From a virus, in IMG/VR virus record IMGVR_UViG_3300032245_001466, positions 18,938 to 82,937 of that record: 64,000 nucleotides of DNA, one strand, 5' to 3'. The first letter of the stretch is position 1. Each line of letters starts with the position of its first letter. Below the pieces are notes generated by a model. It was not told where the DNA came from. It searched no databases and saw only the letters and a list, made by a program, of their open reading frames with translations. Positions 10,088 to 36,372 of the stretch are shown here, piece by piece. The position numbers and the translations under genes are program-made.

Positions 10088-10340
10088 GCCTTTCTGTGGG
10101 GTTTGGAAGGCGCTTGGGGGCTGATTATCGAACCGCCAACCCCACTGCTGTGAAAAATCCGCCGGTGTCCCTAGCGCAGGGGCCAGGGGGGGCCTCGAGG
10201 GCGCACGAGAGGGGTTAGACCCGACCCTCCGGGTCTATCAGTCGACCAGATACAGACTGCGTGCGCGTGGCATTCTCTCCTCAGCGGCGAGACACTCTCG
10301 CCCATAGACGCATCGGACGCGATGCGAGAAGGAGTCAATC

Positions 10341-10637
10341 ATGACGGATCGAGTAGACGCAATCGGAGCCACGCTCCTCGCAATCTTCGCGGCAACGGTT
10401 GCCGCTATGATCTTCGGCAGCGTGCCGTTCAGCGTGCTGAACGATCACGCGTTCGCCTACGCGGTGATGTCGCTCACGATGGGCGTCATCGCAGCGGTAG
10501 CGTTCTTCGCTCTCATGGAGTTCGTTGTTGTTCCTGTTGTCGATAGGATCTACTGGGCGCGGCGAGCAGCACGCCAAGAGCGCGAGCGCATTGAGCGCGC
10601 TTATCGCTCGTGGTCAGTCACGCGCAATCAGCGCTAG
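10341..10637 (+). CDS. cassette gene L0, two-TM membrane protein
   Basis: AAGGAG RBS; two hydrophobic segments. Confidence 0.7.
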   Translation: MTDRVDAIGATLLAIFAATVAAMIFGSVPFSVLNDHAFAYAVMSLTMGVIAAVAFFALMEFVVVPVVDRIYWARRAARQERERIERAYRSWSVTRNQR

Positions 10638-10868
10638 TCGGATTCACCCGCTGTACCGCGGACGCGCGGTGCGGCGGGTGGTTCGTTCGCGCCCACCTGT
10701 GGCCGCGTTCGATCTCACACACACATAATATAAGTAAGTAACTAAGTAATCTGACTAACCTAACAGGTTCGAGACAGCGCTCCGCGCTTATCGAGGCCAC
10801 CTAATGACTGACCGCTATCGTGGCATTCTCTCGGTGCGGCAGTTGCCGTATAGTTTATTGGAGGGTGT

Positions 10869-11183
10869 ATGTTCGAGTATGGTGAACCAGTCGTATCCGC
10901 AACCTACCGCAACGACGCGGTCGCAACGGTCACGATGACCTATCCGTCATTGGAGGGCAAGCTTCCAATGTGGTACACGCTTGATTTGACAATCGGCGAT
11001 CTACCGCGTCTCGTTTGGGGCTACGGCGAATGGAAGGCGGGTAGCGTCAGCGATACGCCGCGCGTCTACTCACTGCTCAAGAATATTGGCGTGTGGACGG
11101 ATGTGCCAGCGTTCATCCGCAGGGATGTTCTCAACGACTACGCGTCATTGGTCGGCGTGACCATTCGCGGCAGCGTCCTGTAG
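10869..11183 (+). CDS. cassette gene L1, hypothetical
   Basis: GGAGG RBS; fills the space between repeats. Confidence 0.75.
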   Translation: MFEYGEPVVSATYRNDAVATVTMTYPSLEGKLPMWYTLDLTIGDLPRLVWGYGEWKAGSVSDTPRVYSLLKNIGVWTDVPAFIRRDVLNDYASLVGVTIRGSVL

Positions 11184-11408
11184 CGCACGCAACCCCCATC
11201 GTCCAGACCATCGGGTCTGGGCGGTGGGTGGTTCGTTGGCCGCCCCCCGATGGGCACAGTTCGATATCGAGACTCCATAATATAAGTAACAGCCTAACTA
11301 AGTTCGAAGCGGCGCTCCGCGCCTAACAACACCACCTAAACGAATCTGCTGCTCGTGGCACTCTCTTGGTGCGGGGCAACAGCACCGCAATAGTATGGAG
11401 GGAATCAA

Positions 11409-11624
11409 ATGGCGTCAACGGCATGGAATCGCAAGAGTGCTGATTGGTATCAGCACAAGGCTACTGAGATCGTTGATATTGCGATGGACCTCACGAATCC
11501 ATCGGCAGACCTGGCGTTGGGTCTAGCCCACAAATGCGCAACGGCGTGGAGCCTCTCACCGCTCAATCGTGAGAAGTTCATGATGCTCGTATACGCAACG
11601 TTCAAGAACGCAATCAAGAAGTAG
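11409..11624 (+). CDS. cassette gene L2, hypothetical
   Basis: GGAGG RBS; between repeats. Confidence 0.75.
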   Translation: MASTAWNRKSADWYQHKATEIVDIAMDLTNPSADLALGLAHKCATAWSLSPLNREKFMMLVYATFKNAIKK

Positions 11625-11869
11625 ATCGACCAATAGGTCGGCAACAGAATCCACTCGCGGGTCGCAGTCGATGCGGCTCGCGGGTGGTTCGTTCGCCACC
11701 ACACACAGGCCAGAGTTCTATCTCGAAGCTATGTAATATAAGTAAGTGGGTAACTAAGTTCGACGCGGCGCTCCGCGCCTAACATGCCCACCTAAACAAC
11801 ACTCTGGCGTGTGGCACTCTCTGGTCAGCGGCGGACGCGCCGCGTAATCGTATAGTAGTAGGAGGTAGT

Positions 11870-12166
11870 ATGGTAGACGCAACCGTCAAGCACTACAACC
11901 CTATCGAGTGGGTTGTCTGGTTCGTAGAGGATAGGTCGCTATCTGATACGGAGAATAGCATCGAGTTCACGGAGCTTCAGGATCGTGTGAATGATCGGAT
12001 CACCGCCGCAATCACGGCGCTCCGTCATTCCAATCCAAACGGCTGGCTCGATAGCCTGGATCAGGGTGGCATGCGCATCATTAACGATGCGCTCGCGCCG
12101 ATCCAATGCCGCACGAATCGTCAGGACGATTCTGGCGCGTGGATCATTGAACGAGTAGACGCGTAA
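11870..12166 (+). CDS. cassette gene L3, hypothetical
   Basis: AGGAGGT RBS; between repeats. Confidence 0.75.
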   Translation: MVDATVKHYNPIEWVVWFVEDRSLSDTENSIEFTELQDRVNDRITAAITALRHSNPNGWLDSLDQGGMRIINDALAPIQCRTNRQDDSGAWIIERVDA

Positions 12167-12402
12167 AACATCCCCCACTCATCGCGGACGCGCGGTGGGT
12201 GGGGGGTTAGTTCGTCGCACCCCGTTCTGTGGCCAAGTTCTAACTCGAGATCCCATAATATAACTAACAGCCTAACTAAGTTCGAGTCAGCGCTCCGCGC
12301 TTAACGAGCACACCTAAATGAATCTGCTGCTCGTGGCATTCTCTTCTTGCGAGCGATGGCACCCGTATAGCAGCGGTGCTCGCAGAAAGGTAGGTGTTCA
12401 CG

Positions 12403-12645
12403 ATGTCTAAGAATGACAATCTTGCCGTCGCGATCAAGCGCCGAGACAATGCTCTCGCGTTGCTTGTAAGCGCGAAGGCGGATGTTGTTGCTGCGACGCG
12501 TCGTATCGCCGAGAGCGGTGGTTCCTATTTGGGGAATCGCCCTTCGTCGCATCCGAGCGTTCAGACAGCACAACGCGTCCTCTGGAACGTTGAAGAGCAG
12601 TACGCCAAAGCGGCGGCTGATCTGGCAACGATCCAGAAGGCGTAG
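12403..12645 (+). CDS. cassette gene L4, helical hypothetical
   Basis: RBS-like AGGTAGGT; between repeats. Confidence 0.7.
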   Translation: MSKNDNLAVAIKRRDNALALLVSAKADVVAATRRIAESGGSYLGNRPSSHPSVQTAQRVLWNVEEQYAKAAADLATIQKA

Positions 12646-12916
12646 CGTCCGTCTGGATTCTCCGAACCGCTCGTCGCTGCTAGGCGAGCGGTTCCCCTTC
12701 TCCCCTCACCGAGCAAGCGCGGTGGGGGGAGAGGTCTATCGGGCCTCTCTCACTACGTTCGATCCCGACAGTCCATAATATAACTAACTAAGTAACTAAG
12801 TTCGAGTCAGCGCTCCGCGCTTAACGAGCCAACCTAAATGAATCTGCCGTCCGTGGGAATATTCATTTGCGACGGGAGAGACGTCGCCCATGTGGTTAAA
12901 GCAAATAGGAGGCTCT

Positions 12917-13189
12917 ATGACGGATACCGAAAAGAAGGCAGCTCCGGTCACGTTGCTGCCATTTGTTGTCGTGGTCGCACGACTCGTTGAATTCTACATC
13001 CCTGTAGCAGCGGCTACAGCGGCTGATGCGAGTGATATCGCTCAGCAGATGGTCATGGATGGCCATGCTGATGATTTCTCCAACGAATGCGACATCCAGG
13101 AGGATGACGTTGACGTTCGGGGGGCGACGTTTGACGATCGCAACCTGTACAAATTCTTTGACGCGGACGGCGAAGAGCACCGCTTCTAG
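12917..13189 (+). CDS. cassette gene L5, acidic hypothetical
   Basis: AGGAGG RBS before ATG 12917. Confidence 0.75.
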   Translation: MTDTEKKAAPVTLLPFVVVVARLVEFYIPVAAATAADASDIAQQMVMDGHADDFSNECDIQEDDVDVRGATFDDRNLYKFFDADGEEHRF

Positions 13190-13455
13190 ATCCTGACCGC
13201 CATCTCTCGGCGGTCAACATCCCCCTCACCGCAGCGATGCGGTGAGGGGGATGGTAGATCCCTAGTCTCTCTCACTACGTTCGAGCTCGAGAATCCGCAA
13301 TATAACTAACTAACTAACTAACCCAGAGTTCGACTCGCCGCTCCGCGGCTAACATGCGTACCTAAATGAATCGGGCGGTCGGGGCATTATGTCGGCACGG
13401 GGACGCCCGACGCGTTGTGAATCGCAACGCGAAACAGAATCAAATAGGAGGCAGT

Positions 13456-13716
13456 ATGGACGCACTGGAAATCTTGTACAAGGTATTCGCACTATCGTAT
13501 GTTGCCGAGCGCGAGGCGTATCGCAATGTTCAGCGTTGGGAGACGCTCGCAGCGGCGCAGGGGAAACCCGAACCGCAGTACGCAACCGATAGCGTGTACG
13601 CTTCGCTCATTGATGAGTGGGACGAAGCGCACAAGGAACTGAAGAAGTTTGAGCGCGAACTTCTCAAGGAGTACCGCAAGCAGCGAGCAGCGGGCACCTT
13701 CACAGTGATGGCGTAG
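13456..13716 (+). CDS. cassette gene L6, hypothetical
   Basis: AGGAGG RBS before ATG 13456. Confidence 0.75.
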   Translation: MDALEILYKVFALSYVAEREAYRNVQRWETLAAAQGKPEPQYATDSVYASLIDEWDEAHKELKKFERELLKEYRKQRAAGTFTVMA

Positions 13717-13951
13717 ACACCGCCACGACACCACACCCCATCAACCGCGGACGCGCGGTTGGTGGGGTGGTCGGTCGGTACTCTCTCTCACGTTGTTCGA
13801 GCTCGGCAGCCCATAAGATAACTAACTAACTAACTAACCAATAACTGGTTCGAATCGGCGCTCCGCGCCTAACGAGCCCACATAAACGAATCCGTCGCCT
13901 ATGACATTATTCAGGTGCGGCAGTTGCCGTGTAGTATGAAAGGGGAAAGAA

Positions 13952-14278
13952 ATGTCACACGAGTTAGAGTTCAGTCACGATCCAAAGAGCGTCGCAGATC
14001 CCTGCTCTCTGGATAGTATCGTTGAGGCGTACATTGAATTCCGCAACGCACCTGTGCGTGGCACGAATCTCGTTTATCGGCAAATGCCCGTAGACGAGAT
14101 GCTCGCGATGACGCGCCGACCAGAGGATTTCATTGAGAGGCTAGGATCGTGGGCTGCGATCTGGGGTTCAGATTCTCAGCGATACGACATCGGCAAGTTC
14201 GGGTGGTGGTCCTGCTCCGAGTGCGGCGCCGATGACATTGAGTTAGGTTCATACGACGACGAGTGCGACGAAGAGTAG
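13952..14278 (+). CDS. cassette gene L7, acidic, C-terminal CxxC
   Basis: AAGGGG RBS; WSCSECG...DDECDEE. Confidence 0.75.
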   Translation: MSHELEFSHDPKSVADPCSLDSIVEAYIEFRNAPVRGTNLVYRQMPVDEMLAMTRRPEDFIERLGSWAAIWGSDSQRYDIGKFGWWSCSECGADDIELGSYDDECDEE

Positions 14279-14499
14279 TCGCCAATCGCTCCACTCTCCC
14301 ACCGCTCACCGCTTCGGCGGTGGGCGGTGGTAGTTCCATCCCGAGTCTCTCACTTCGTTCGATCTCGAAACTCCATAAGATAACTAACTAACTGGGCGTT
14401 CGATCCGACGCTCCGCGTCTATCAGGAGAACCTAAACAATAATGGCGTCTATGTCATTGTCTCTCTGCGGCACCTGCCGTATAGTTTGTAGGAGGTAGT

Positions 14500-14823
14500 A
14501 TGTCGGACACAGAAACGATGAGCCTTCAGGAGATGGCTCGCGAACTGACGGTAATGCGCATTGAGCGTTCCCGCTGCTGCGATCCATACGATTGTATGCA
14601 TCACGAGATGTGCGGCGAAGAGTGGTACGGGAAATGCAGCGGCTGCGAGCGTCGTGCGTACCTTTCCAATGAATTCTACGCTGCGTGCGAAGCAGAGAAT
14701 GCAGATCCTGCCGCGCTGCTCAATGCAGAAGAGCGCGCTATTGAGGATGAGCGCTTTGACTTCTACTCGCGAATGAACGAGTGGGGCAATGACGACGCTG
14801 CCTTCTGGACCGATCAAGAGTAG
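14500..14823 (+). CDS. cassette gene L8, acidic Cys-rich
   Basis: AGGAGGT RBS. Confidence 0.75.
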   Translation: MSDTETMSLQEMARELTVMRIERSRCCDPYDCMHHEMCGEEWYGKCSGCERRAYLSNEFYAACEAENADPAALLNAEERAIEDERFDFYSRMNEWGNDDAAFWTDQE

Positions 14824-15032
14824 TCGCATCACCCCGTTCACCGCTTTGGCGGTGGGCGGGGTGGTCTACCGAGGCTCTCTCACTACGTTCGATACCGAAC
14901 CCCCGTAAGATAACTAACTAACCCTGAGTTCGACTCGGCGCTCCGCGCCTAACGAGAGCACCTAAATGAATCACCCCCTCGTGGCATTCTCTTGGTGCGG
15001 CACTTGCCGCGTAGTATGAAAGGGGAGCGCAA

Positions 15033-15338
15033 ATGTTTGATTGCGTAAAGCACGGCGAGGTAGCGAAGAGTCTCAGTGGCTATTGCGTTGCTTGCTGCTC
15101 AGAGGATCATATCTGCGAAACCTGCGGATTGCGCAGCGGCAGTGATGATGGCTTCACTCTCGTTGAGTGGCGCAGCACGCAAATTTGGAAGGGTCAGATG
15201 CTTTGCGATGATTGCGTTGCGTGCGCAGATTGCGAAGTTTCTGGTGACGGTACCGTGAACACCCACAACGATTACAGCGAACTGCTTTGCGATGCTTGCG
15301 TTGAGGATCGCGACGCAGAGTGGGAGAGCGAAGAGTAG
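15033..15338 (+). CDS. cassette gene L9, multi-CxxC acidic protein
   Basis: Several CxxC pairs; ends WESEE. Confidence 0.75.
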   Translation: MFDCVKHGEVAKSLSGYCVACCSEDHICETCGLRSGSDDGFTLVEWRSTQIWKGQMLCDDCVACADCEVSGDGTVNTHNDYSELLCDACVEDRDAEWESEE

Positions 15339-15571
15339 TCACAACCGATCCACTCCACCATCGTCAACCGCTCGGCGGTTGGCGGTGGTGGTTCAATCGG
15401 GAGTCTCTCACTTCGTTCGATCCCGACAGTCCGTAATATAACTAACTAATTAACTAACTAATAACTGGTTCGACTCGGCCCTCCGGGCCTATCGGCCTAA
15501 CATAAATGAATCAATCGTTTGCCGTACTCTCTGGGTGCGGCGGTTGCCGTGTAGTAATAAGGAGGCTAGTA

Positions 15572-15916
15572 ATGGGAGCAATGAAGAATCAAGCAATAGA
15601 GGAGCGCAACGATAGCGTCGTTGATTATCACACATGGCGATTCGTAGAAGCCGATGGCGGTGCTGATCAGCACGCGCTAGAGTGGTGGGCGTCATCATAC
15701 GCTCGCCGTGCCGATACCGCCGACGAAGCGGTAGACGTCATGGAGAAGCCGCATCACTACGCTGAGGAGATTGCAGAGTTCGCCAGCATTTATGCTGACG
15801 CGAGCGATGACGACCTCTCGCTATTCGGCTATTGGGAGTGTGAAGAGTGCGGCGAAGAGTCCAAGAGGATCTCGCACTCGATAGACATGGCGAAGACCTG
15901 CTACGGTCAGCAGTAG
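15572..15916 (+). CDS. cassette gene L10, acidic
   Basis: AAGGAGG RBS before ATG 15572; WECEECG. Confidence 0.75.
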   Translation: MGAMKNQAIEERNDSVVDYHTWRFVEADGGADQHALEWWASSYARRADTADEAVDVMEKPHHYAEEIAEFASIYADASDDDLSLFGYWECEECGEESKRISHSIDMAKTCYGQQ

Positions 15917-16145
15917 CGCACCGCCCCACTCACCGCTTCGGCGGTGGGTGGGGCGGTCTATCGGGCCTCTCTCACTTCGTTCGAGCTCGCCAACCTGACT
16001 AATAACTAACTGCATAACTAACTAAGATAACTAACCTAACGTTCTGACGCTCGCTCCGCTCGCTTCGGCCGAACTATAATGAACCCAGCGATTCAGGCAC
16101 TATGTCGGTGCGGGGCTTCCCGTGTTGCGATAAGGAGGCAATAAA

Positions 16146-16376
16146 ATGGTAGCGTGCCAAGATTGTGGCGTTGAGTTCTTCAACGAGTTTGAGCCACTAT
16201 CAACTATCTGCGCAGCGTGCGTAGATGAGCGCGATTCCTATTACGAGAAATGGGCGGCAGAATACGCTGACGCTATGGCGGAAGAAGATGACGCTTGGGA
16301 GCGCACCAAGCGCAGGATTAGCCCTGAGCGCGGGTTTATCGGAACGGATACCGACCCGCTACCAGGCGGCGACTAA
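16146..16376 (+). CDS. cassette gene L11, acidic Zn-ribbon
   Basis: AAGGAGG RBS; CQDCG...CAAC. Confidence 0.75.
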   Translation: MVACQDCGVEFFNEFEPLSTICAACVDERDSYYEKWAAEYADAMAEEDDAWERTKRRISPERGFIGTDTDPLPGGD

Positions 16377-16381
16377 ACCAG

Positions 16382-16502
16382 AAGCCCCTCGTTGCCACGC
16401 GGCAGCGGGGGGCTTTCTGTTTGACCCCTCCTCGCCGGGCGAGGAGGGCTTGCCCAAATAATAAGCCCCCCAAGAGCCTCGGCGGTTTCTTGGGGGGCTT
16501 GC
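16382..16502. terminator. convergent terminators at the junction of the two arms
   Basis: AAGCCCC...GGGGCTTTCTGTTT (+) and AATAATAAGCCCCC...GGGGGCTT (-), with a third hairpin between them. Confidence 0.75.
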
Positions 16503-16836: not shown

Positions 16837-17017
16837 TGTCTAGCCTCCTTCTATGCCTTGCCCAAGTGGGCTAGTCGCATTATAGAGTGAGATTCTGCGC
16901 CCTGTCAAGCGTTCTATCTCAGGTAGCCGGGGCTACCTGAGCCATAACAATAAACCCCGCCGAAGCGGGGCTTATCGTTTCACGACGGGGGGCTAGTTCC
17001 CCGTAGCGAGCATCTAG

Positions 17018-17239
17018 TTATCGCGCAAGCGCGACGGCCTCTTGTACGCGGCTTGCCGCGCCCTCGGCGCTACCGAACTCCTCAATGCCGAACACCTCAA
17101 CGAGATTGTTTACAAAGTCGGTCGCCATCTTCTCAAAGTAGAAGGTCGTATCGCCCTCCGCGTCCTGCCCCTCATACCAACGGGCAAAGGTTGTGCTTGC
17201 TCCGTTTGTGTGAATCTGATACCAAGTGTTTGCGTTCAT
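17018..17239 (-). CDS. cassette gene R2b, hypothetical
   Basis: ORF coupled to upstream small Cys-rich ORF. Confidence 0.65.
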   Translation of the reverse strand: MNANTWYQIHTNGASTTFARWYEGQDAEGDTTFYFEKMATDFVNNLVEVFGIEEFGSAEGAASRVQEAVALAR

Positions 17240-17244
17240 TAGTC

Positions 17245-17394
17245 CTACTCCTCACATACGCAGGTTTCGCACCCGCAGTTGATTTTGTTGTGGCACTTCT
17301 CGCAAAGCACCTTGCCGCTCTGGTTGAGTGTTTCGCTCATACCATCGCCGCAGTTCTCGCAGGGCGAGTAGTCCAAGTCCTCAAAGGTCGCCAT
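17245..17394 (-). CDS. cassette gene R2a, 49-aa Cys-rich acidic protein
   Basis: MATFEDLDYSPCENCG...LCEKCH...CGCETCVCEE*; AGGAGG RBS; translated by hand. Confidence 0.65.
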   Translation of the reverse strand: MATFEDLDYSPCENCGDGMSETLNQSGKVLCEKCHNKINCGCETCVCEE

Positions 17395-17555
17395 TTCTAG
17401 CCTCCTATTCCTAGCCAGCCCAAGTGGGCTACGGGCATTATAGAGTCATCTTCTGCCTGCCGTCAAGTGGTTCTAGTCCAATCTGCCGAGGCAGATTGGA
17501 GGCAAACAAAAACGAGGGGCGCACCCCTCGTTTCTGTTTTCTGAGCTGCGAAACC

Positions 17556-17963
17556 TTACGCGATAGGGTAGCCGCCCAGTTCTAGCAGCGTGCGGATTTC
17601 TTCCACCTGCTCATCATTGAGGGCGAGCGTCTGCCCGTCCTTATCCTCTGCGGTGAGTACGCAGTTGCCATAGATGCCGTCAAAGTTTCCGCCGAGGATT
17701 TCATTTCGCAGCGAAGTTGCCGCCTGATTGCGGACGACTGGCTCATTGAAAAGCCCTTCCTCATCGCACCAGAGCACCACACTCGTTGCGCCGTACTTGC
17801 CAGAAACCGCAACCTCGGTAATGTCAAACTCGCCCACGCGGTAAATCTCTTTGAGCGTGCTGCCGTCATCGTTGAAGTCCACCACCTCAACCCAGTTGAA
17901 GAGTGCGCCGTTTGGCGTTGCGTCCTCAAACTTGCCGACTCCGAACTTGAACGCCTTACCCAT
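17556..17963 (-). CDS. DUF3846-like protein
   Basis: LWCDEEGLF....RN..AT...IYGNCVL...DG.T..L. Confidence 0.65.
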   Translation of the reverse strand: MGKAFKFGVGKFEDATPNGALFNWVEVVDFNDDGSTLKEIYRVGEFDITEVAVSGKYGATSVVLWCDEEGLFNEPVVRNQAATSLRNEILGGNFDGIYGNCVLTAEDKDGQTLALNDEQVEEIRTLLELGGYPIA

Positions 17964-18093
17964 TTTCTAGCCTCCTACTTTTTCCATCGGGAAGCCCCGA
18001 CCTCTGAATCTTACGCGATAAATCCGCAGCCTGTCAAGCGGGTTCTACCCCTAATGGCCGGAGCCATTAGGGGCTGAACTATTATCTGGCGAT

Positions 18094-18435
18094 TTAGGCG
18101 AAGACGCTTGTGATGTCCTGCATTTCGCGCTCAGCGGCTTCGGCGGAATCAAAGACAACGAAGTCAATGAATCCATCGTTGCGCCAGTGAACGATTGCAT
18201 ACTGGAACCTATCGTAAGTCCCATCAAGTTCGGTTTCATACGATTCATCTGGGATAGCAACGCCATCCATCGTATCTCCATAGATGAGTTCAATCTTGAT
18301 AGCGTGCGGCTCAACGCGGCTCCGAACTTCTGGTCGGAGATACCAAACTGGGCACTTGCTGCACACTTCGCCCTGTGAGCAGTGGAACTGGTAGAAGTCG
18401 CTCTTCGTGAGTGAGATTGCAAACGCCTTGAACAT
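18094..18435 (-). CDS. cassette gene R4, hypothetical
   Basis: AGGAGG RBS and own promoter. Confidence 0.7.
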   Translation of the reverse strand: MFKAFAISLTKSDFYQFHCSQGEVCSKCPVWYLRPEVRSRVEPHAIKIELIYGDTMDGVAIPDESYETELDGTYDRFQYAIVHWRNDGFIDFVVFDSAEAAEREMQDITSVFA

Positions 18436-18636
18436 CCTAGCCTCCTGTTCTCAATCAGCCCAAGTGGGCTACGCCCATTGTAATGTGAACTTTCCCAGCC
18501 TGTCAAGCGTTCTATCCCAAGTGGCCTCGGCCACTTGGGGCATAACAATAATAAAGCGGGCTAGTTGGCTGCGATCAACTAGCCCGCTTGGGGAAGAGGT
18601 GGTGGAGGCTGCCGCCACCTCGTAGACATTAGTCCG

Positions 18637-18900
18637 CTATGCGAACTCAAACTGGCGACAATCTGCGCCGAACAAACAACTGGCTGGCTCGTGTGGTTGT
18701 GGCTCTATTGCCCAGTTTAGGCAAGTGCCGCAAGAATCGCCACAAAGGTTGATGTCATCCCAGTCAAAGACAGGTCCGAGGGTGTTGCCCTCGCGGTCAG
18801 TTGTCTGTGGGTCGTCAAGCGCGTCGCCGAAGCGAACCTCAGCGCACGCCACGCAATGGAATGAACCCTCGTAAGTCCAAGCCAAGATTCTGCTATCCAT
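18637..18900 (-). CDS. cassette gene R5, Cys-rich (HC..CA..RF...DREGN)
   Basis: GGAGG RBS before ATG 18900. Confidence 0.7.
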   Translation of the reverse strand: MDSRILAWTYEGSFHCVACAEVRFGDALDDPQTTDREGNTLGPVFDWDDINLCGDSCGTCLNWAIEPQPHEPASCLFGADCRQFEFA

Positions 18901-19094
18901 AAGTCCTCCTACTCGCAACTATCGGTAGTTCCCGACCACACGATTATACGCGATAAGTTCTGAGCCTGTCAAGTTCCACCGCAAGGAGCCGAGGCTCCTT
19001 GCGCCTACCCAATAATGCTATCTACTGCTGATGAGGGCGAGTGTGTACAGCATTAGGAGCAGGAGCAGCCCGTAGAAGATGGCGTACTCCACAA

Positions 19095-19352
19095 TCATAC
19101 AACCACGCTTTGGAGCGCGTCGTAGCAGTCATCGCATAGCGACTGCTTATGCTCGTAGGCGTTCTCGTAGCCGTTCCAGCCGTAGGCAAACGAACGCGTC
19201 TTGCCCTCAAACGGGCAACGCTTGTCCAGACCAAGAGCCTCCTCGCCCTCGCACTCCTGAACCATTGGGTGATCGTGCGTTTCGCACTCGCATTGGTCGT
19301 AGTAGCAATCGCCGTTGCCACACATCGTCATTGACGCTTGTAGGTATGCCAT
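19095..19352 (-). CDS. cassette gene R6, Cys-rich acidic
   Basis: AAGGAGG RBS before ATG 19352. Confidence 0.7.
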   Translation of the reverse strand: MAYLQASMTMCGNGDCYYDQCECETHDHPMVQECEGEEALGLDKRCPFEGKTRSFAYGWNGYENAYEHKQSLCDDCYDALQSVVV

Positions 19353-19469
19353 TGTTGCCTCCTTCACTAGCCTCCCCAAGTGGGGTACTCGTATTCTATA
19401 CACACTCCTAGCCAGCCGTCAAGCGGGGTTCTAGTCATCTTTGCCGGAGCAAAGATGAGCAGAACAAAT

Positions 19470-19695
19470 AGAAAGACCCCCCAGAGCCGTCGCCCTGAGA
19501 GGTCTTTCCTCGGATTCGTTGTCTGGGGCTAATCACTTCCCCAGACTCCTTTTCCTTCCGCTCCGCCGATACATTGGCTCCTAGCGGTCATCGTCCTTTG
19601 CGTCTCTATCCCCGCATTTCTTGGCTGCGGCATCTGCTCGCTCGTCCAGAGTCTCACCCAGTCGGTTGCTATTCCTAGGATCGCTTCCGACATAG
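19470..19695 (-). ncRNA. candidate small RNA occupying a cassette slot
   Basis: TTGACA(19722-19727)-18-GATACT promoter and terminator hairpin near 19472-19508, with no RBS-led ORF between. Confidence 0.45.
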
Positions 19696-19855
19696 GGAGT
19701 ATCTCACCTCGTCTGGGGTCTTGTCAAGCACTTTCCCAAAGATTCTTTATGAATCTTTTTTATCCACCAGCCGCCCCCTTGACAGTTCTATCCCGAAGTG
19801 CAGCTGCACTTCGGGCTGCCACAATAATAAACTCAAAGAACAAGGAGCCAAATAA

Positions 19856-19990
19856 CTAACTCTCTTGCGGGTGCTCGCAGTTTTCTGACTGCTCCAACTC
19901 GTAGCACGCGTTATCCCGAACGGGATTGTCTACACACTCGCAGACAATCTCATTGCGTTCGCAGTCATCGCACCAAACCATCGTACTCAT
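19856..19990 (-). CDS. 44-aa Cys-rich acidic protein
   Basis: MSTMVWCDDCERNEIVCEC...; GGAGG RBS; translated by hand. Confidence 0.55.
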   Translation of the reverse strand: MSTMVWCDDCERNEIVCECVDNPVRDNACYELEQSENCEHPQES

Positions 19991-20208
19991 TAGAGCCTCC
20001 CAGTTCCGCCGCAGCCGCAGATGCCGCCCTCGCAGGTTGCGCCTTCCTCAACGAGCAGCGCGCAGCCGTACTTCTCGGCTCGGTGTTCCTCGCACGATTC
20101 GCAGTAAAGAGCAGATTTGCCAGACTCATTGTTGTCGGAGATGTACGCTGCCTGACCGTCGCAGAAGTCGCAGAAGCGCGACTCCAAGATGAACTCGCCC
20201 TCGCTCAT
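19990..20208 (-). CDS. Cys-rich small protein
   Basis: CDFCD...YCESCE...CEGGICGC. Confidence 0.65.
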   Translation of the reverse strand: MSEGEFILESRFCDFCDGQAAYISDNNESGKSALYCESCEEHRAEKYGCALLVEEGATCEGGICGCGGTGRL

Positions 20209-20414
20209 AGTGCCACCTCAAATCCGTCAGCCTGAATACCATCTAGAATCTGCTGAACATAGCGGCGCTCAATCGCAAGACCGCGACCAAGATACATCGC
20301 GTCCTCGCCGATGTTCTCGTCCAGCCAGCGGCGAGCATCGCTCGTCGTCGGAGTGAGTAGGCAGACGGAGCCGCCGTCCGTGAGCGTGAAGTCCGCGCTG
20401 TGCTTCTTTGCCAT
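20205..20414 (-). CDS. conserved small phage protein
   Basis: GSVCLLTP....A..WLDENI...LAIERRY...I..G...DG; AGGAGG RBS. Confidence 0.7.
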   Translation of the reverse strand: MAKKHSADFTLTDGGSVCLLTPTTSDARRWLDENIGEDAMYLGRGLAIERRYVQQILDGIQADGFEVAL

Positions 20415-20734
20415 TGTGTCCTCCTATCGCAACGCGCCCAAGTGAGCGTGAGGAAAGTGTAAATGATCATTGACCAGCCGTCAAGTTCTAACTCAAACAG
20501 CCGCGGCTGTTTGAGCCGAAACAATAAAGGGGAGCCGCGCCAGACACCACATCTGGCACGACTCCCCGCGTATCGCCGCTATGACGCTTATCCCCTTGCG
20601 GAGGCAACCTTCGGCTCTCGCCTAGTTGCTGCTGACTCTACCTTCTCTGGTTAGGAGCCCAAGAGCCAGACCTTATCGTCGCGGGCAGTTCGTCAATCTG
20701 CCAACTAGCCGTCCTCTACACGGCGCGGATTTAT

Positions 20735-21019
20735 TTACGCTTTCACCTCGTACTGCTCGCCGCCGATTCGCAGCGCGGTGATTGCGTCAAGGGCGATTGA
20801 GCGATAGCCCTCTGCGGTAATGTCATAGACGAAGATGAGGTCTTTGGCAGCAGCGTCATACGCAGCCTCGCCGCCTTTGAGATGCTTCTTTACGCCAAGA
20901 CGCGCCGTCATCTTGCGAAGTTCGCCCGTGGTTCGCTTGATGAAGTCCACGCCGAAGATTGCGCCATTGCTGTTGCGAATCATCTCTGCCGCTTCGCTTC
21001 GCTTGATTGCCTTTGCCAT
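20735..21019 (-). CDS. SH3/WYL-like beta-barrel protein (DUF2693-like)
   Basis: F.V.F.KRTTGELRKM.ARLGV...VYDI...GYRSI. Confidence 0.6.
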   Translation of the reverse strand: MAKAIKRSEAAEMIRNSNGAIFGVDFIKRTTGELRKMTARLGVKKHLKGGEAAYDAAAKDLIFVYDITAEGYRSIALDAITALRIGGEQYEVKA

Positions 21020-21141
21020 TTCTTCCTCCTTGTTCACAGCACCCCAATCGGGGCAAGCCCATTATAGGGTCATCTTTTGCCAGCCGTCAAGTGGGTTCTA
21101 GCCCAAGAGGCCGGAGCCTCTTGGGGCTGAACTATAATCGC

Positions 21142-21318
21142 CTACTTCCAGTCTTCTGGAACTAACTGCCAATCCTTTTCGCAATCACTAGAATAAAGGT
21201 CGCAATGCCGACACCAGACGACAAAGCAGCCCTCCTCGTGTCCGTCTTTCTCGCAATCAGACCAGAGCCAATGCGCCTCGCGAAGATTGTCTGGGCAGTC
21301 GCAGCGAAGAACGCTCAT
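21142..21318 (-). CDS. small Cys-rich protein
   Basis: Coupled to upstream gene. Confidence 0.5.
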   Translation of the reverse strand: MSVLRCDCPDNLREAHWLWSDCEKDGHEEGCFVVWCRHCDLYSSDCEKDWQLVPEDWK

Positions 21319-21764
21319 AGGACTTCGCAACCTTTCAGGGTGCGGCAAAGACCCAGAAACTCTCGCCACTCCTCAATAATCGCAACCCAAGCCGTAGCCT
21401 CTTCATCTGGGTCAGCCTTCGTCTTATCGTCCGTGTACGGGCTGGCAAGAAGAATACCAGTAATAATCTTCTTGATTTCTTCTTCGCTCAACTTGGAGAT
21501 GGCATTGTGTAGTTCTTCGCACTCATAGTCCTTGATGATGTTGCCGCTGTTATCGTACAGATTCTCATTGACCTCGGTGAATCCAATCTCATCGTGGAAA
21601 GCGCGCAGGTAGCCCATACCCCAAATGTTCAGTCGGAAATAGACCGCGCTTGGAGCCTTCTCAGCGTAAGAGCCGTCTGGCTCAATCCACATTGAGCGGA
21701 ACTTCTTGGCGTGCGCCGCAGCCAGTTCACGATTCTCTCGCAATGAGTAGATGTCGTATCCCAT
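21315..21764 (-). CDS. conserved phage protein (YFRLNIWGM...FL..C..CEV)
   Basis: AAGGAGG RBS before ATG 21764. Confidence 0.7.
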   Translation of the reverse strand: MGYDIYSLRENRELAAAHAKKFRSMWIEPDGSYAEKAPSAVYFRLNIWGMGYLRAFHDEIGFTEVNENLYDNSGNIIKDYECEELHNAISKLSEEEIKKIITGILLASPYTDDKTKADPDEEATAWVAIIEEWREFLGLCRTLKGCEVL

Positions 21765-21917
21765 TTTGTCCTCCTTATTCCACACCCCAATCAGGGCAAG
21801 GTCATTGTAAGGTACCGCTCTCCGCTCGTCAATAGGTTCTAGCCAAGATGGCCGGAGCCATCTTGGGTACAACAAAAAACCGCCCGAAGGCGGTTAGTTG
21901 TTTGGAAATAATCCTGA

Positions 21918-22394
21918 CTAAACGATAACTTCCTGCGGCTCCATAAGCCCAGCCCAGATGTTTGGCACATTAGAGCGGATGCTCGTGTATCCGTCAGAGG
22001 AAATAACGAGATGGTCAAGAAACTCAATGTCCAACAGGCGCGCCCCTGCCACCAAGTCCTCAGTTAGTTTCTTGTCCTCGTCGGACGGAGTGTGGTCGCC
22101 GCTTGGGTGATTGTGAACAACCACAATGCCCTGACCGCCAGTCAGGATACAAGAGCGAAACACTTCGTTGATGCGAACGCTTGTGCCTGTTGCCGTGCCA
22201 AGATAGACCTGCTCAATCCCGATGAGATTATTCCTTGCCCCAAGCACCATCACAAACAGCGACTCCTGATTAGAGTCCTTTGCGAAATCGCGGAACATCT
22301 TTACTGCCTCGGCTGGCTGCTCAACCCTCTCATCGGACTGATCAGCAACCTTCTTTCTCTTTACCACCATTTCGTATGCTTTCCAGTTCTTCAC
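21918..22394 (-). CDS. RadC-like JAB domain protein
   Basis: QE...V..L..RN, VHNHPSGD..PS.ED..LT, LLDIEFLDHLVI. Confidence 0.9.
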   Translation of the reverse strand: MKNWKAYEMVVKRKKVADQSDERVEQPAEAVKMFRDFAKDSNQESLFVMVLGARNNLIGIEQVYLGTATGTSVRINEVFRSCILTGGQGIVVVHNHPSGDHTPSDEDKKLTEDLVAGARLLDIEFLDHLVISSDGYTSIRSNVPNIWAGLMEPQEVIV

Positions 22395-22939
22395 GCTACC
22401 ACCACCTTTGCTGCTTCCTCTTTGGTTGTCTTGCCGCTGCGAATCTCATCTCGCAACTCAATCCCTTCCTTCATCCAGATTGCGTCAAGTTCGGCGTTGC
22501 GCTTCTCAGCGTGCTTTGCCTCGCGCAAACCTTCCTCAGTCATACGCTCAACAACGCGCTTGCGCCAAGCCGTCGGCGACTCATAAGAGGCGTTTGTTGA
22601 GAGTCCGATGTGCCGAACGATGTCGGCACGCGTCAGAGGGCGAGCCTCAAAGCAATCTGCGTTCTTATCGCCGTCTGGCTCGTTTCCGTTCCATACGGTC
22701 ATCTTTGAGAGCCAACCGATTTCGTATGCGAGCGCGAGTCGCTGCTCCCACTCATCCACATTGGCTTCGGTGATTTCGTTTAGTCCAATCGTCATCGTCG
22801 CCCAGATGAAGGAGTTCGTGATTGGGCTGAGGTACTCCTCGCCGCGCACGCGTCCATCCATCACGCTGCTCTTTGTTGCGGTGAGCCAACAGACATCATC
22901 CGCGTCCTTGATGTTTCCCACGAACCAACTTAGTGGCAT
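22391..22939 (-). CDS. hypothetical protein
   Basis: AAGGAGG RBS; IGL.EITE.N...HIGLSTNA. Confidence 0.7.
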   Translation of the reverse strand: MPLSWFVGNIKDADDVCWLTATKSSVMDGRVRGEEYLSPITNSFIWATMTIGLNEITEANVDEWEQRLALAYEIGWLSKMTVWNGNEPDGDKNADCFEARPLTRADIVRHIGLSTNASYESPTAWRKRVVERMTEEGLREAKHAEKRNAELDAIWMKEGIELRDEIRSGKTTKEEAAKVVVA

Positions 22940-23067
22940 ACTGCCTCCTTATGTCCTCTTATCGGGAAGCCCCGACCTGCTTATTCTAAGACCACGCTTG
23001 ACCCGCTGTCAAATGGGTTCTAGTCCAATGAGCCGGAGCTCATTGGAGGCGAACTATTATCTGCTTA

Positions 23068-23538
23068 TTACTTGATTTGGTTTGTCGTATAACCGCACGC
23101 CATACAAACTGGGACGGAGCAGCCTTCGGGATTGTCGCCCGTATCTACGCCCTCATCTGGGTCGCACAATCCACACGGCGCATAATCGACATCACGGCAG
23201 AGGCACTCGCTTTTCGCATCTCGCGGCAAGTCGTTGTAGTGCCTGTGCCAGTTTGCGTCGCCGTCGCGATTCAGCGCAAACTCGCAATCAGGGCGGAAGC
23301 ACCAACCATCAGCAACGGCTTCCTTGTCCGACATAAATGGCGGGTGAAACTCACACTCGCACGGAGCGCAGTCCAAGCAGTAGACGAGATAGCCATCTGG
23401 CACGCTTCCATCATACTGATCAAAGTCAAGCGTATCGAATCGCGTGTACGGCATACCATTCCAAGTGCCGATGACCTTCTCGTCGGCGTAGAAGACCATC
23501 GTGGAGCAGCGAACGCATTTGTCCATCTGCCCACTCAT
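23068..23538 (-). CDS. Cys-rich hypothetical protein
   Basis: Multiple CxxC; coupled. Confidence 0.6.
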   Translation of the reverse strand: MSGQMDKCVRCSTMVFYADEKVIGTWNGMPYTRFDTLDFDQYDGSVPDGYLVYCLDCAPCECEFHPPFMSDKEAVADGWCFRPDCEFALNRDGDANWHRHYNDLPRDAKSECLCRDVDYAPCGLCDPDEGVDTGDNPEGCSVPVCMACGYTTNQIK

Positions 23539-23843
23539 TCTGCTTCCTCCCACTCCGCGCCCTGCTCAATCAGGGAAACGAATCCTTCATTTGGATCATC
23601 GTGGTTGGTGTGAACTGCCTGTACGAATCGCAACGAACAAGAGTTCTCGTACCACTCCATCACCGCGCTCAGCATCTCATCTGGCGTGGTGTCTTCCGCG
23701 GAGATCAGCGGATCATAGCCGTACCCGCGCATCTCCGACATCTGCTCATCGTCCATCAAGACATAGATCTTGTGGCAGGTATCAAACGCGATGCCCTTCG
23801 CATTTTCTAGATACTCCTCAACCTTGTCGAAACTCGCTGCCAT
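23535..23843 (-). CDS. conserved acidic phage protein (IAFDTCHKIY...WYENSCSLRF)
   Basis: AGGAGG RBS and own promoter. Confidence 0.7.
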   Translation of the reverse strand: MAASFDKVEEYLENAKGIAFDTCHKIYVLMDDEQMSEMRGYGYDPLISAEDTTPDEMLSAVMEWYENSCSLRFVQAVHTNHDDPNEGFVSLIEQGAEWEEAE

Positions 23844-24003
23844 TTCGTCCTCCTAGTTTCTACACGGCAACTGCCGTAGGTGGATTGTAAGGCACAACCT
23901 AGCGGCTCGTCAAATGTTCTACTCCAAGTGGCCGGAGCCACTTGGAGTAAAACAAAAATCCCGCCCCGAAGGGCGGGATTTCTGGTTGATCTTCTGGTGA
24001 AGA

Positions 24004-24966
24004 TTACGCGAGGGCGAGAATCGCCTCGCGCTTTGTCTTCGCTGCGAAGCCCGTATCCAACATCACGCTTGACGCTCGCGCATCAAGAGCCGTTGAGCGA
24101 ACGCCGCCACGATACGAAACGCCGTGATCGAGGTACTCCGCGATGGCGTTGTACACGCCCCACTTCGTATCGCGAAGCCCGTCAAGATTCTCCGCGTTAT
24201 TGAGAATCGCGAAAGTTGCCTTAGCGCGCTCCGACATTACTTCCTTATCGCGCTTCTCCGATTCAGAGAGCGGGAAGATCTTTGAGATGATGCGGAACGC
24301 CTCAGATCGCTCAATCTTCTGGGCAACCATCTGCGAGCCGATGCGCGAGAACTCATCAACAGCGGCAGAGGCAAGCCCAAGAGCGCGCTTCGCCTCCGCG
24401 ACTTTCTCCTCAATCTTCGCCGTGTGGCGAAGTGTGAACGACATCTTCGCGCTTCCAAGAGCCGCGTTGAGCGTATTCTGGCATACCACGCGCACAGGAG
24501 TGATCATCGCTTTGAGCGGGAACAGCCCGTTGTGCCCATTGGCGATGACGAGGTAAGTCGTCGTGCCGCCGTTGTCGCCCTTGATCTCGATCTTCTCAGG
24601 AATCTCCAACGCCGCGAAGATCACCTGACCGCCTTTGAGTGAACCAGCCGTTTCGTAGCGCGCACCCTCATCAAGCAGCGCGTCCGCGAACGACAGCATC
24701 TCATCGTTCTGGATTGGCGTGTAGCGGTCGCCGACAACGCCAAGAACCGCGCCGTCAGTTGATCGAACATTTGCGCGCTTGCCCTCGATGGCGAGCGTCT
24801 TGTTGTCGAGCGTTGTGAAGATCGGCTGCTGCTTGACCTGCCAATCAAGACCCGCGGCAACGATCATTTCCGCGCTCGTAGTAAGACCTGCGTTTGCTAC
24901 GCCAAGTCCGTGCCACGGCATACCGCGCTCCGCGTTGTATGCCATCGTTTCTACCTCGTGTGCCAT
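24004..24966 (-). CDS. DUF932 family phage/plasmid protein
   Basis: MAHEVETM...PWHGLG...AGLDW.V...LGVVG.RY..IQN...YETAGSL.GG...TPVRVVCQNTL...RHT. Confidence 0.9.
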   Translation of the reverse strand: MAHEVETMAYNAERGMPWHGLGVANAGLTTSAEMIVAAGLDWQVKQQPIFTTLDNKTLAIEGKRANVRSTDGAVLGVVGDRYTPIQNDEMLSFADALLDEGARYETAGSLKGGQVIFAALEIPEKIEIKGDNGGTTTYLVIANGHNGLFPLKAMITPVRVVCQNTLNAALGSAKMSFTLRHTAKIEEKVAEAKRALGLASAAVDEFSRIGSQMVAQKIERSEAFRIISKIFPLSESEKRDKEVMSERAKATFAILNNAENLDGLRDTKWGVYNAIAEYLDHGVSYRGGVRSTALDARASSVMLDTGFAAKTKREAILALA

Positions 24967-25151
24967 TGTGTCCTCCTTCTTTACATACGGCAACTGCCGT
25001 AAGAAGATTCTCCCACAAGCACAAGATCGCGTCAAGTTCTAGCCCAAAGGGCCGGAGCCCTTTGGGTGGAACATAATAATAAGCCCCCCGAATAATCGAG
25101 GGGCTTATTACTTTGTGGGGCGCAGGGAGGACGCCTTGCGCCCCGAAGTCA

Positions 25152-25964
25152 TCAGCCTCCGACGATGCCGCCGAAATGCTCCTCGCAGAACGACTCAAAC
25201 TCCGTCTGCGGAACGGCATCATAATCTCGCTCGCCGTATTGCGGCTTGCCATCTTCGCCCTTGTACCACGCCTCATCTGGCAGCGAGTCGCCATCGCCAA
25301 ACTCACGCCGCGAGATTTCGTTTCCCGCGTGATAGACAACTTCGCCAGCGTAGCCCATACCGCCTTCGCAATAACGATGAGTAATGGTCAGCGTTGGGAA
25401 TAACCCAGAGAGCGCGTGAATCACAGGCTCGGCAGGGCTCCACGCGGTATCAAAGTTGTATGAAGTTATACCCGCGACAAATGAGTCGTCGCGGTCGTGC
25501 CAAGCCTCGGAGCAGTTCCACTTTGTTCCCCAATGCTCAACATTCCAGTTGTACCACCAGTCTGGGTGTGAGGAAATCTTTGGGGTGTTGTGCTTTGGGC
25601 AGACCTCTGAGCCGCCGAACATCTGAGCAACAGAGTCAGTAATCGTGCCGTTATCAAGGTTCGTCTTCTTTACCTCAACGCCGTCCACAGCCCAATAGCC
25701 TTCTTGAGGCTCAAAGCCGTAGTCCTTCTCGTACTCGTGTCCTTCGGCTCCCTTGACCACCGCCTTGGTGATAACGAACTCTGGGTGGCAGCCACAAAGG
25801 AAATCGTTCTGATTCTCGTTGGCTGAATAGTACGGAACATCAGGAGTCGGAACAATCTTCGCGAAATCGAAGCCGTCCTCTTCGCCCTTGACCAACTCAA
25901 TGAGTCGGACAATCTCCTGCTCGTTTCCGCTGATGTCTACTTGGTTTACGCACCAGTTTGGCAT
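25152..25964 (-). CDS. DUF1281/YubB-like ferredoxin-fold protein
   Basis: MPNWC.N...FDF..IVP.P...WYNWNVEHWGTKWN...FDTAWSP...Y.E.G. Confidence 0.85.
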   Translation of the reverse strand: MPNWCVNQVDISGNEQEIVRLIELVKGEEDGFDFAKIVPTPDVPYYSANENQNDFLCGCHPEFVITKAVVKGAEGHEYEKDYGFEPQEGYWAVDGVEVKKTNLDNGTITDSVAQMFGGSEVCPKHNTPKISSHPDWWYNWNVEHWGTKWNCSEAWHDRDDSFVAGITSYNFDTAWSPAEPVIHALSGLFPTLTITHRYCEGGMGYAGEVVYHAGNEISRREFGDGDSLPDEAWYKGEDGKPQYGERDYDAVPQTEFESFCEEHFGGIVGG

Positions 25965-26085
25965 TGTGTCCTCCTTGTGTCCTCGCGGGAAGCCCCGCAC
26001 CATTGGATTGTAAGCCACCGCTTCCGCTGCTGTCAAGTTCTACCTCAACAAGCCGGAGCTTGTTGAGCGCGAACTAATTATTTTT

Positions 26086-35877: not shown

Positions 35878-36228
35878 TTACCGCTTCCCCTTGCTCACCA
35901 GTTCGTATGCCGCACTGCCAATCAAGAAGTGACTTACGCCCAACTCTTTTGCAATGCGGCCAATGGGCTTTTTATTTTTTGCTGCGGATTCAACCGCTCG
36001 CAAAAGATTCTCATCAACCTTCTTTGACTTAAATGTTTGTCGGTTGCGATTACTTCCGTAAGACTCCACCTCTGAGCGAACGTACATGATCCGCGGACGC
36101 CCACCGTTAGGTCCTTGGCCGGCGTTAAACTTCTGCCACCCATAGCGTCGAGCGGCCTGTACTGCCGCAGAATACGAGACTCCAAGAATCTCTGCCGCTT
36201 CGGAAATCGAAACGTGCTCTGTCTTCAT
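35878..36228 (-). CDS. HTH DNA-binding protein (excisionase-like N-terminal HTH plus second HTH)
   Basis: SISEAAEILGVS...; IAKELGVS. Confidence 0.65.
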   Translation of the reverse strand: MKTEHVSISEAAEILGVSYSAAVQAARRYGWQKFNAGQGPNGGRPRIMYVRSEVESYGSNRNRQTFKSKKVDENLLRAVESAAKNKKPIGRIAKELGVSHFLIGSAAYELVSKGKR

Positions 36229-36372
36229 TTTCTCCTTCTTTCCCCAAGTCATCTTCGCTTGGACAACCACTATACGCGACCCACAATGAGGCTGTCAAGT
36301 TGGCGATCAAAGTAAGACATCACTCAAAATGCGTCAACGGGGGAAAAAGGGTAGGGATAAAGGGGGAAATAG

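Follow-up and report, generated by a model that had tools for sequence, protein, structure and literature searches.

What does a small DNA hairpin do when it stands, copy after copy, before the genes of an uncultured phage? The stretch of DNA considered here (the window) comprises 64,000 nucleotides (nt) of the IMG/VR virus record IMGVR_UViG_3300032245_001466, positions 18,938 to 82,937 of that record, and lies within an 82,937-bp viral contig that has 123-bp direct terminal repeats and is listed as 100% complete. Its left arm holds an array of 26-bp elements with the pattern GTTCGA-NNC-stem5-TCC-stem5'-TAWC, which an initial annotation described as "hairpin promoters or hairpin-recognition sites" in the geometry used by the virion RNA polymerase (RNAP) of coliphage N4. 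The structural part of that description stands and recognition sites are plausible, but a promoter specific to its own polymerase is not supported. We find that the hairpin is rigidly coupled to a host-type -10 box, and the element is most likely a site that lies upstream of ordinary host-type promoters and acts in their control or in recombination. In its specific form, to which we give about even chances, our proposal is that the element is not the promoter itself but the upstream, DNA-level, hairpin- or cruciform-capable part of a regulatory cassette of approximately 230 bp, resembling the promoter-early stem-loop (PeSL) modules of T4-like phages.

A hairpin maintained by compensatory change

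Eleven perfect copies of the element occupy 10,214-15,493 on the plus strand, at the coordinates first reported; a pattern search allowing up to two mismatches returns 11 matches against 0.71 expected, and none of 100 shuffles reaches 11. All 11 stems pair perfectly and use the six stem pairs originally listed. Genome-wide (82,937 bp), there are 13 perfect 5-bp stems with a TCC loop, 11 of which are the array copies. The GTTCGA flank, attributed to every copy, is present in copies 2 to 11; copy 1 has GTTAGA. An exact-pattern scan of viral contigs found the element in three related contigs only, G001 (84.6 kb), G002 (a 33-kb fragment), and G003 (85.2 kb), and together with the window's genome (G000), their arrays hold 47 left-arm elements. 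The window's elements, with the variant that closes the array, are as follows.

10214..10239, plus strand: element 1, GTTAGA-CCC-GACCC-TCC-GGGTC-TATC, first of the array, without an AT-rich (CTAA)n block upstream
10767..10792, plus strand: element 2, stem AGCGC/GCGCT
11302..11327, plus strand: element 3, stem GGCGC/GCGCC
11758..11783, plus strand: element 4, stem GGCGC/GCGCC
12280..12305, plus strand: element 5, stem AGCGC/GCGCT
12800..12825, plus strand: element 6, stem AGCGC/GCGCT
13328..13353, plus strand: element 7, stem GCCGC/GCGGC
13848..13873, plus strand: element 8, stem GGCGC/GCGCC
14398..14423, plus strand: element 9, stem GACGC/GCGTC
14928..14953, plus strand: element 10, stem GGCGC/GCGCC
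15468..15493, plus strand: element 11, stem GGCCC/GGGCC; the G002 orthologue has GGCGC/GCGCC, a compensatory change
16041..16066, plus strand: element 12, variant CTCGC-TCC-GCTCG, which cannot form a 5-bp hairpin

The hairpin is a real structure under selection. Among the 47 elements, 36 form perfect 5-bp hairpins, 4 have one internal mismatch together with two extra outer G-C pairs, and 7 are CTCGC-TCC-GCTCG variants, a 13-mer that closes the arrays in all four genomes and always stands at the far end. Even with these variants included, 90.3% of cells are paired, three of the five pairs have changed on both sides (24 cells), and no change is one-sided, a score reached by none of 500 shuffles. 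No G-U pair occurs among 185 cells of the left-arm stems, and the departures from pairing are C-C, C-T, and A-C. A compensatory change is also seen at another orthologous site, where the window's GACCC/GGGTC corresponds to GCCCC/GGGGC in G001 and G003.

A more distant array-bearing contig (G004), with a tape measure core 46% identical, carries eight elements of the form GTTC(G/C)A-NGG-stem6-TCC-stem6-TAC(N). Its stems are different and again covary; six of the eight are perfect (stems of 5 to 7 bp), and two have one mismatch. Across the five genomes, the TCC loop is unchanged in 55/55 left-arm elements while the stems vary. Two relatives at 34-39% identity (G005 and G008) yielded no elements.

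A cassette module with a -10-like box at a fixed distance

Each element precedes a small gene (a dozen in the window), and 12 left-arm intergenic regions align over roughly 230 bp. From its 5' end, the module runs from a GC-rich hairpin after the stop codon through CTCTCTCAC-TWC-GTTCGAT, CATAATATAA, and a variable (CTAA)n run to the element. It then continues through 6 nt, the 13-nt box B (ACCTAAAYNNNNN), 12 nt, a YAYTNT hexamer, and 4-7 nt to a leader hairpin, a Shine-Dalgarno sequence, and the start codon. The repeated parts other than the element are located as follows.

10271-10276, 10824-10829, 11359-11364, 11815-11820, 12337-12342, 12857-12862, plus strand: YAYTNT boxes 1 to 6
13385-13390, 13905-13910, 14455-14460, 14985-14990, 15525-15530, 16098-16103, plus strand: YAYTNT boxes 7 to 12
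10784..16095, plus strand: box B copies, each starting 6 nt after an element and covering the -35 position
10707, 11259, 11715, 12237, 12757, 13279, 13795, 14357, 14887, 15415, 15979, plus strand: a second GTTCGA/GTTCTA hexamer in each intergenic module, followed by CATAATATAA and variable (CTAA)n

The coupling between hairpin and box is rigid. Not a single indel separates element from YAYTNT in 47/47 cases, the box starting 31 nt after the element, although the 6-nt and 12-nt spacers vary freely in sequence. The second and sixth bases, A2 and T6, are the two key positions of a -10 element, and YAYTNT carries both, as sigma-70-type -10 hexamers do: A2 is kept in 46/47 copies, T6 in 46/47, and T4 in 44/47. 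In G004, the 6 + 13 + 12 layout recurs in all eight elements; the boxes differ, and a -10-like GATGAT starts 3 nt further on. Moreover, YAYTNT lies 7 nt before the leader hairpin CGGCAGTTGCCG, and the same hairpin follows TACAAT or GAGAAT at 7 nt in the right arm. Because these leader hairpins follow right-arm -10 hexamers at the same distance, YAYTNT is the positional -10 of the left-arm cassettes. A weight matrix of box B plus box C scores highly only beside an element. Two occurrences of boxes B and C away from any element (G001 69220 and G003 80636) were rejected as chance matches, having lower scores, a position inside a conserved gene, and no leader.

The hexamer at the -35 place, 17 nt upstream of YAYTNT, is CTAAAY or CTGAMY, and TG occurs at -15/-14 in 20/47 promoters. 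In a scan for consensus promoters, none of the 12 left-arm cassette promoters passed. Since the left-arm cassettes hold no consensus promoter, their promoters form a distinct class that lacks a consensus -35. Two alternative sigma readings were set aside. A sigma-54 reading of GTGGCA... has the wrong GG-to-GC spacing, as judged by eye, and relatives have TATTCT there. Some left-arm promoters (window 10784-16103), especially in G001, G003, and G004, read CTAAA-N15-..GCGAT(T/G)AT, which is similar to the flagellar sigma-28 consensus, TAAA-N15-GCCGATAA. This TAAA-N15-..CGAT.. reading was rejected since only some copies fit.

Two further features of the intergenic DNA were observed. The (CTAA)n runs (window 10638-16040) close all three reading frames, and their length is the only indel-variable part of the module. 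Also, left-arm genes end in long GC-rich hairpins, some with UUCG loops, which are followed by CTCTCTCAC-TWC-GTTCGAT and have no U tract (window 10640-15960).

Related palindromes in the right arm and a strand-polar flank

Between 16.9 and 26.1 kb, the genes lie on the minus strand and the two arms converge. Each of these right-arm cassettes has one perfect palindrome, which reads on the plus strand as GTTCTAN, a 10-nt stem, a 4-nt loop, the second 10-nt stem, and NNNAAC.

16911, 17470, 18042, 18509, 18973, 19428, 19785, 20485, 21095, 21836, 23017, 23916, 25036, 26037 (range 16911..26074): the 14 right-arm 38-bp palindromes

In 13 of these 14 cassettes, a U-tract terminator comes just before the palindrome, and a minus-strand TTGAC(A/G)-N17/18-TATAAT-like promoter, whose hexamers score 9-12 of 12, follows 0-5 nt downstream. 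These palindromes thus sit between terminator and promoter, in DNA not expected to be transcribed. The 50 right-arm palindromes of four genomes contain 506 Watson-Crick pairs and 7 G-T pairs (1.4%), compared with 11.6% and 16.4% G-U in the folds of neighbouring stretches. The central four bases occur in both orientations among the relatives (CGCC and GGCG). In G000 and G002, the strand that carries the TCC loop depends on the direction of the genes and is not fixed in absolute terms.

GTTC(T/G)A lies on the left arm's coding strand in both convergent arms, whatever the direction of the genes. The GTTCKA strand counts are 36:2 in G000, 44:8 in G001, 28:1 in G002, 41:12 in G003, and 21:2 in G004, and no bias is seen elsewhere in the genomes. 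The minority-strand sites of G001 and G003 belong to left-arm ATAGAAC-N3-GTTCTAT palindromes. In these two genomes (L013 and L020, respectively), that 17-bp palindrome is the left-arm upstream box; it has the same half-site as the hairpin flank and is operator-like.

GTTCKA looks like a protein half-site. Two small proteins of the window were considered in connection with the arrays.

35878..36270, minus strand: a 130-aa protein whose helix-turn-helix matches are weak; each of the four other contigs with arrays has it, and G005 and G008 lack it
29583-29798, minus strand: a 71-aa protein consisting of primary-sigma region 4.2 plus a C-terminal tail (Sigma70_r4, 50.2 bits; phrog_351 positions 694-733)

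By its distribution, the 130-aa protein is at most a tentative candidate binder. As the left-arm factor, the 71-aa protein, which looks like sigma region 4.2, was rejected: it occurs in G000 and G002 only and is absent from G001, G003, G004, and G005. Because G001, G003, and G004 carry elements without it, this protein is not the general factor. A 406-aa protein restricted to the array-bearing genomes was also discarded as a candidate, as it is an exonuclease (phrog_284, E 1.1e-68).

Likeness to the early promoters of coliphage N4

The likeness to N4 is close. According to a review of this system (PMC4496689), N4 early promoters are template-strand hairpins with a 3-nt loop, -10G/-11G/-12A, plus -9C and -8G; the stem has 5-7 bp, and four bases precede +1. 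On the coding strand of the N4 record EF056009, the three promoters read GTTGC-TTC-GCAAC-ttat-G, GAAGC-TCC-GCTTC-tttt-G, and GCTGC-TCC-GCAGC-tttt-G, with P2 at position 559 and P3 at position 4548. The window's pattern is NNCSC-TCC-GSGNN-TAWC-R, with G at -8 in 9/11 copies. The geometry originally proposed is therefore right, as judged against the N4 genome and PMC4496689: P2 and P3 have an identical GC-TCC-GC core, also followed by a 4-nt spacer and a purine. Two related details of that proposal also hold among the 47 elements of the four genomes, namely, a purine after TAWC in 47/47 and, on the template strand, a C(GGA)G triloop (a perfect 5-bp stem with a GGA loop) in 36/47. N4 P1-P3 and the present elements share a GC-rich 5-bp stem, covarying outer positions, and a TCC coding-strand loop that is GGA on the template.

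The differences are equally clear. N4 has 3 early promoters, whereas 11-14 copies per genome occur here; an extra conserved GTTCGA lies 3 nt upstream, and the distance to a -10-like box is fixed. Also, this phage, which is no schitovirus, encodes a tape measure protein, and no cognate polymerase was found in it.

A physicochemical explanation for the resemblance is available. GCGNAGC is described as an extraordinarily stable DNA mini-hairpin (PMC13037366), and the template strand of most copies reads GC-GGA-GC, although copies 1 and 11 read CC-GGA-GG. This motif is a property of DNA and not a biological system. Because the template strand fits GCGNAGC, the likeness to N4 may be convergence on an easily extruded hairpin.

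Search for a cognate RNA polymerase

The initial annotation recognised no polymerase in the window, and family models, catalytic motifs, and direct comparison with the N4, T7, and P23-45 enzymes gave the same result. A hidden Markov model search of the full genome for a single-subunit RNAP, which it had proposed to include the giant open reading frame at 56116, likewise recognised none. The T7-like family PF00940 (RNA_pol) gave no match, and its positive control was also silent in every genome; sigma region 2 gave no match, with a control that matched in 11/14 genomes. Motif B of right-hand polymerases, R-x3-K-x6-8-[YF]G, is absent from frames of at least 120 aa except for one stray match in a 151-aa frame. 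With all filters off, phmmer comparison of N4 vRNAP, both N4 RNAPII subunits, N4 gp1 and gp2, P23-45 gp64 and gp96, and T7 RNAP with 2,616 open frames of G000-G003 reached no better than E 0.011 (9.5 bits).

The giant tape measure protein calls for comparison with Thermus phage P23-45, in which an RNA polymerase marked by DFDGD is hidden in the giant tape measure protein (PMC10770324).

Window 56116-64000 joined to L001:124-3077: the giant tape measure protein, 3,611 aa, spanning the contig ends

The TMP_3 domain occupies residues 1,700-1,837 and is preceded by an N-terminal extension of approximately 1,650 aa. The extension is low-complexity and rich in Ala, Gly, Lys, and Ser (13.8% Ala, 9.9% Gly, 0.1% Trp, 0.2% His, and no Cys), and it evolves fast, with 20-25% identity between genomes that share identical elements. 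No DxDxD occurs in any of seven tape measure homologues; the sole [DN]xDxD of the window's protein occurs near residue 3327, and P0008 does not retain it. In the Protein Data Bank (PDB), no polymerase was matched by the extension, whether searched alone or as two profiles. A polymerase fused to the tape measure protein, as in P23-45, was accordingly rejected on the basis of motif, composition, conservation, and profile searches. An NFDED motif in the 1,590-aa protein encoded after the tape measure gene was also rejected; its context is fibronectin-like by eye, and a relative has TFDQD. The tape measure protein of G004 has 2,794 aa, with a shorter extension.

With P23-45, the present phage shares a size of approximately 83 kb, a giant tape measure protein with a long N-terminal extension, and an array of small genes (the pre-early region in P23-45) at each of which promoter and terminator motifs recur. 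By eye, the P23-45 genome shows a conserved terminator hairpin and, directly against the start codon, an AT-rich promoter, motifs that differ from the element here. The DFDGD of gp96 has no counterpart in the present phage, and no similarity to gp64 or gp96 is detectable. The claim that the elements are promoters for a hairpin-specific phage polymerase is therefore not supported: no such polymerase was found in five related genomes, the -10-like box at a fixed distance explains the start better, and the related right-arm palindromes stand before consensus host promoters.

Cassette exchange and comparison with known systems

Between genomes, left-arm alignments mostly cover the modules only, which cross-match among all copies, while the cassette genes differ. 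Few gene bodies align, examples being 14230-15009 and 15329-16463 with G002. In one metagenome run, cassettes are joined at module borders on contigs from relatives; as these contigs were matched at 85% likeness, the junctions may be repeat artefacts and carry little weight. Contigs from runs X19 and X20, whose RNA-Seq label is a guess (X19 is probably DNA), break at the repeats.

This pattern is the one described for PeSL. These motifs of T4-like phages are composite terminator/promoter motifs (PMC4122927, PMC2839356) that occur at sites of gene-content difference (PMC4122927). In both systems, short conserved stem-loop and promoter modules flank small variable genes and mark replacement borders. 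However, the two are unrelated in sequence and belong to different phage groups, and the present phage has in addition a perfect palindrome with a strand-polar flank between terminator and promoter, as well as two promoter classes in two convergent arms.

Repeated intergenic operator sets of temperate phages provide another comparison. The stoperators of mycobacteriophage L5 and the conserved inverted repeats of phiC31 are conserved in sequence, and through them a single protein is believed, or has been shown, to control many transcription units. They share with the present elements tens of copies of a short intergenic site in consistent orientation. Here, by contrast, the stem bases are unconstrained, and conservation extends to pairing, loop, and flanks only.

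Integron attC sites have R boxes of the form RYYYAAC...GTTRRRY. The flanks here, GTTCKA...AAC, are in the opposite order and by eye do not fit GTTRRRY. The genome has no match to the tyrosine recombinase family PF00589 (control matched in 14/14 genomes) or to the Y1 transposase family PF01797 (control matched), and an integron-like or HUH-like site was set aside as no recombinase or transposase partner was found. An Rfam search at E up to 1 gave no family match in the left arm.

How the element may act, and what else it could be

We propose that host RNA polymerase would read each cassette through a sigma-70-type -10 contact without a consensus -35, with transcription probably starting approximately 7 nt after YAYTNT. 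With the start placed after YAYTNT, itself 31 nt downstream of the element, the hairpin would be centred near -54. The hairpin and its strand-polar GTTCKA flank most likely form together a docking site, recognised by structure plus sequence, for a phage or host protein that would control the cassette promoters co-ordinately. The GC-GGA-GC mini-hairpin would ease extrusion of the palindrome, which is probable in supercoiled DNA, and the repeated modules would also serve as points of cassette exchange between phages. Because pairing is strictly Watson-Crick, because the right-arm homologues lie between terminator and -35, and because the flank is strand-polar, the hairpin appears to act at the DNA level.

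Several observations weigh against this proposal. The GTTCKA half-site is found on the side of the element away from the promoter in the left arm but on the side next to it in the right arm, where its distance to the -35 ranges from 0 to 5 nt, a poor fit to one fixed RNA polymerase contact. Single left-arm hairpins are modestly stable (-4.8 to -6.0 kcal/mol, z -1.3 to -1.6, standard parameters). Moreover, seven of the 47 elements, the CTCGC-TCC-GCTCG variants, keep the downstream boxes without a 5-bp hairpin, so the hairpin seems dispensable for some cassettes. The match to N4 P2 and P3 in core, spacer, and purine is exact. Finally, unlike the right arm, the left arm lacks TTGACA-like -35 boxes at its cassettes as well as U-tract terminators, which would fit a second transcription machinery.

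The strongest rival is a strand-polar site for a DNA transaction outside transcription, such as replication, nicking, packaging, or single-strand recombination, loosely attC- or HUH-like, which would lie between cassettes because that is the sole free space there; we consider it unlikely, though a serious possibility. The placement of GTTCKA on one absolute strand through both convergent arms of five genomes suits it well, as do the perfect Watson-Crick palindromes, the persistence of modules while cassette content differs between relatives, the joins at module borders (subject to the artefacts mentioned above), and the presence in the phage of several nucleases, SSB, and RusA. Against it stand the missing PF00589 and PF01797 partners, whose controls both matched, the poor fit of the flank to attC, and the TCC loop, which follows gene orientation in G000 and G002. 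Nor would indel-free coupling to promoter boxes in five genomes be expected of a site that merely shares a spacer. True N4-style promoters, in which a divergent, phage-supplied, and probably injected polymerase would read the template-strand C(GGA)G hairpin and start at the purine after TAWC, are in our view distinctly improbable. The 5-bp stem, core, spacer, and purine of N4 P2 and P3, a TCC loop invariant in 55/55 elements with changing stems, a left arm devoid of the consensus -35 boxes and U-tract terminators of the right arm, and the P23-45 precedent (PMC10770324), given the 1,650-aa extension here, all speak for them. Yet PF00940 (with its silent control), motif, phmmer, and PDB profile searches, all at the sequence level, found no polymerase; the extension is low-complexity and 20-25% identical between genomes whose elements are identical; and the fixed distance to a -10-like box is left unexplained. 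The related view that the phage runs two transcription systems, one arm having hairpin promoters and U-less terminators and the other, under host sigma-70, having consensus promoters and U-tract terminators, strikes us as similarly doubtful.

The hairpin might instead work as RNA, transcribed from the AT-rich CATAATATAA block or by read-through and serving as a signal for leader processing, stability, or antitermination. Read-through is plausible because the GC hairpins that come after left-arm genes have no U tracts, and the (CTAA)n runs close all three frames as if ribosomes arrived from upstream. Nevertheless, we hold an RNA role to be very unlikely: the 185 stem cells hold no G-U pair, with C-C, C-T, and A-C as the departures, the right-arm homologues sit between terminator and -35 box with loops in both orientations among relatives, Rfam gave no left-arm match, and the AT-rich block has no consistent -10 pattern and stands at a variable distance from the hairpin. 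The palindromes could also have no function of their own and be carried along as recombination and gene conversion spread the module, their symmetry kept by template switching within the palindrome. Modules are indeed homogenised within and between genomes, and hybrid arms such as GCCGC...GCGCC look recombinant. In G004, however, where stems, boxes, and flanks have all changed, the loop is still TCC with its closing C-G pair and the GTTCNA flank is retained, and compensatory changes occur at orthologous sites; we find this explanation hardly credible.

Genomic setting

The terminase is at most 27% identical to that of any deposited phage, and the array region has no DNA match in the phage collection. 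Small shares in freshwater and other metagenome runs were given no weight as evidence of habitat. Pfam and PHROG scans of 75 window frames plus the larger proteins returned only replication, recombination, nuclease, ParB-like, glycosyltransferase, and structural families. Side observations include a 722-aa fusion of a prohead protease (Peptidase_S78) with a ferritin-like domain, encoded at L001:13804-15972 (minus strand) beside an SU10-type major capsid protein, and an Api92-like ferredoxin domain, which is an entry in the window's Pfam tally. The right-arm cassettes (window 16900-26100, minus-strand genes) encode DUF932 (343 aa), a RadC-like JAB domain, and DUF3846, families typical of the leading regions of plasmids and integrative and conjugative elements and of anti-restriction islands.

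What the hairpin may mean for this phage lineage

One uncultured phage lineage has two promoter classes, with and without a consensus -35. The locus also illustrates that promoter-like geometry can mislead when no cognate enzyme is found, while the N4-style minority reading, if true, would point to an unknown polymerase family. If the proposal of an upstream DNA-level element is right, this phage group uses small palindromes, under selection for pairing and not for sequence, to time or insulate approximately 25 accessory-gene cassettes, and its left-arm palindromes have arrived by convergence at the mini-hairpin that serves N4 as a promoter. They would then be a natural case of DNA secondary structure held at a fixed position upstream of host-type promoters.

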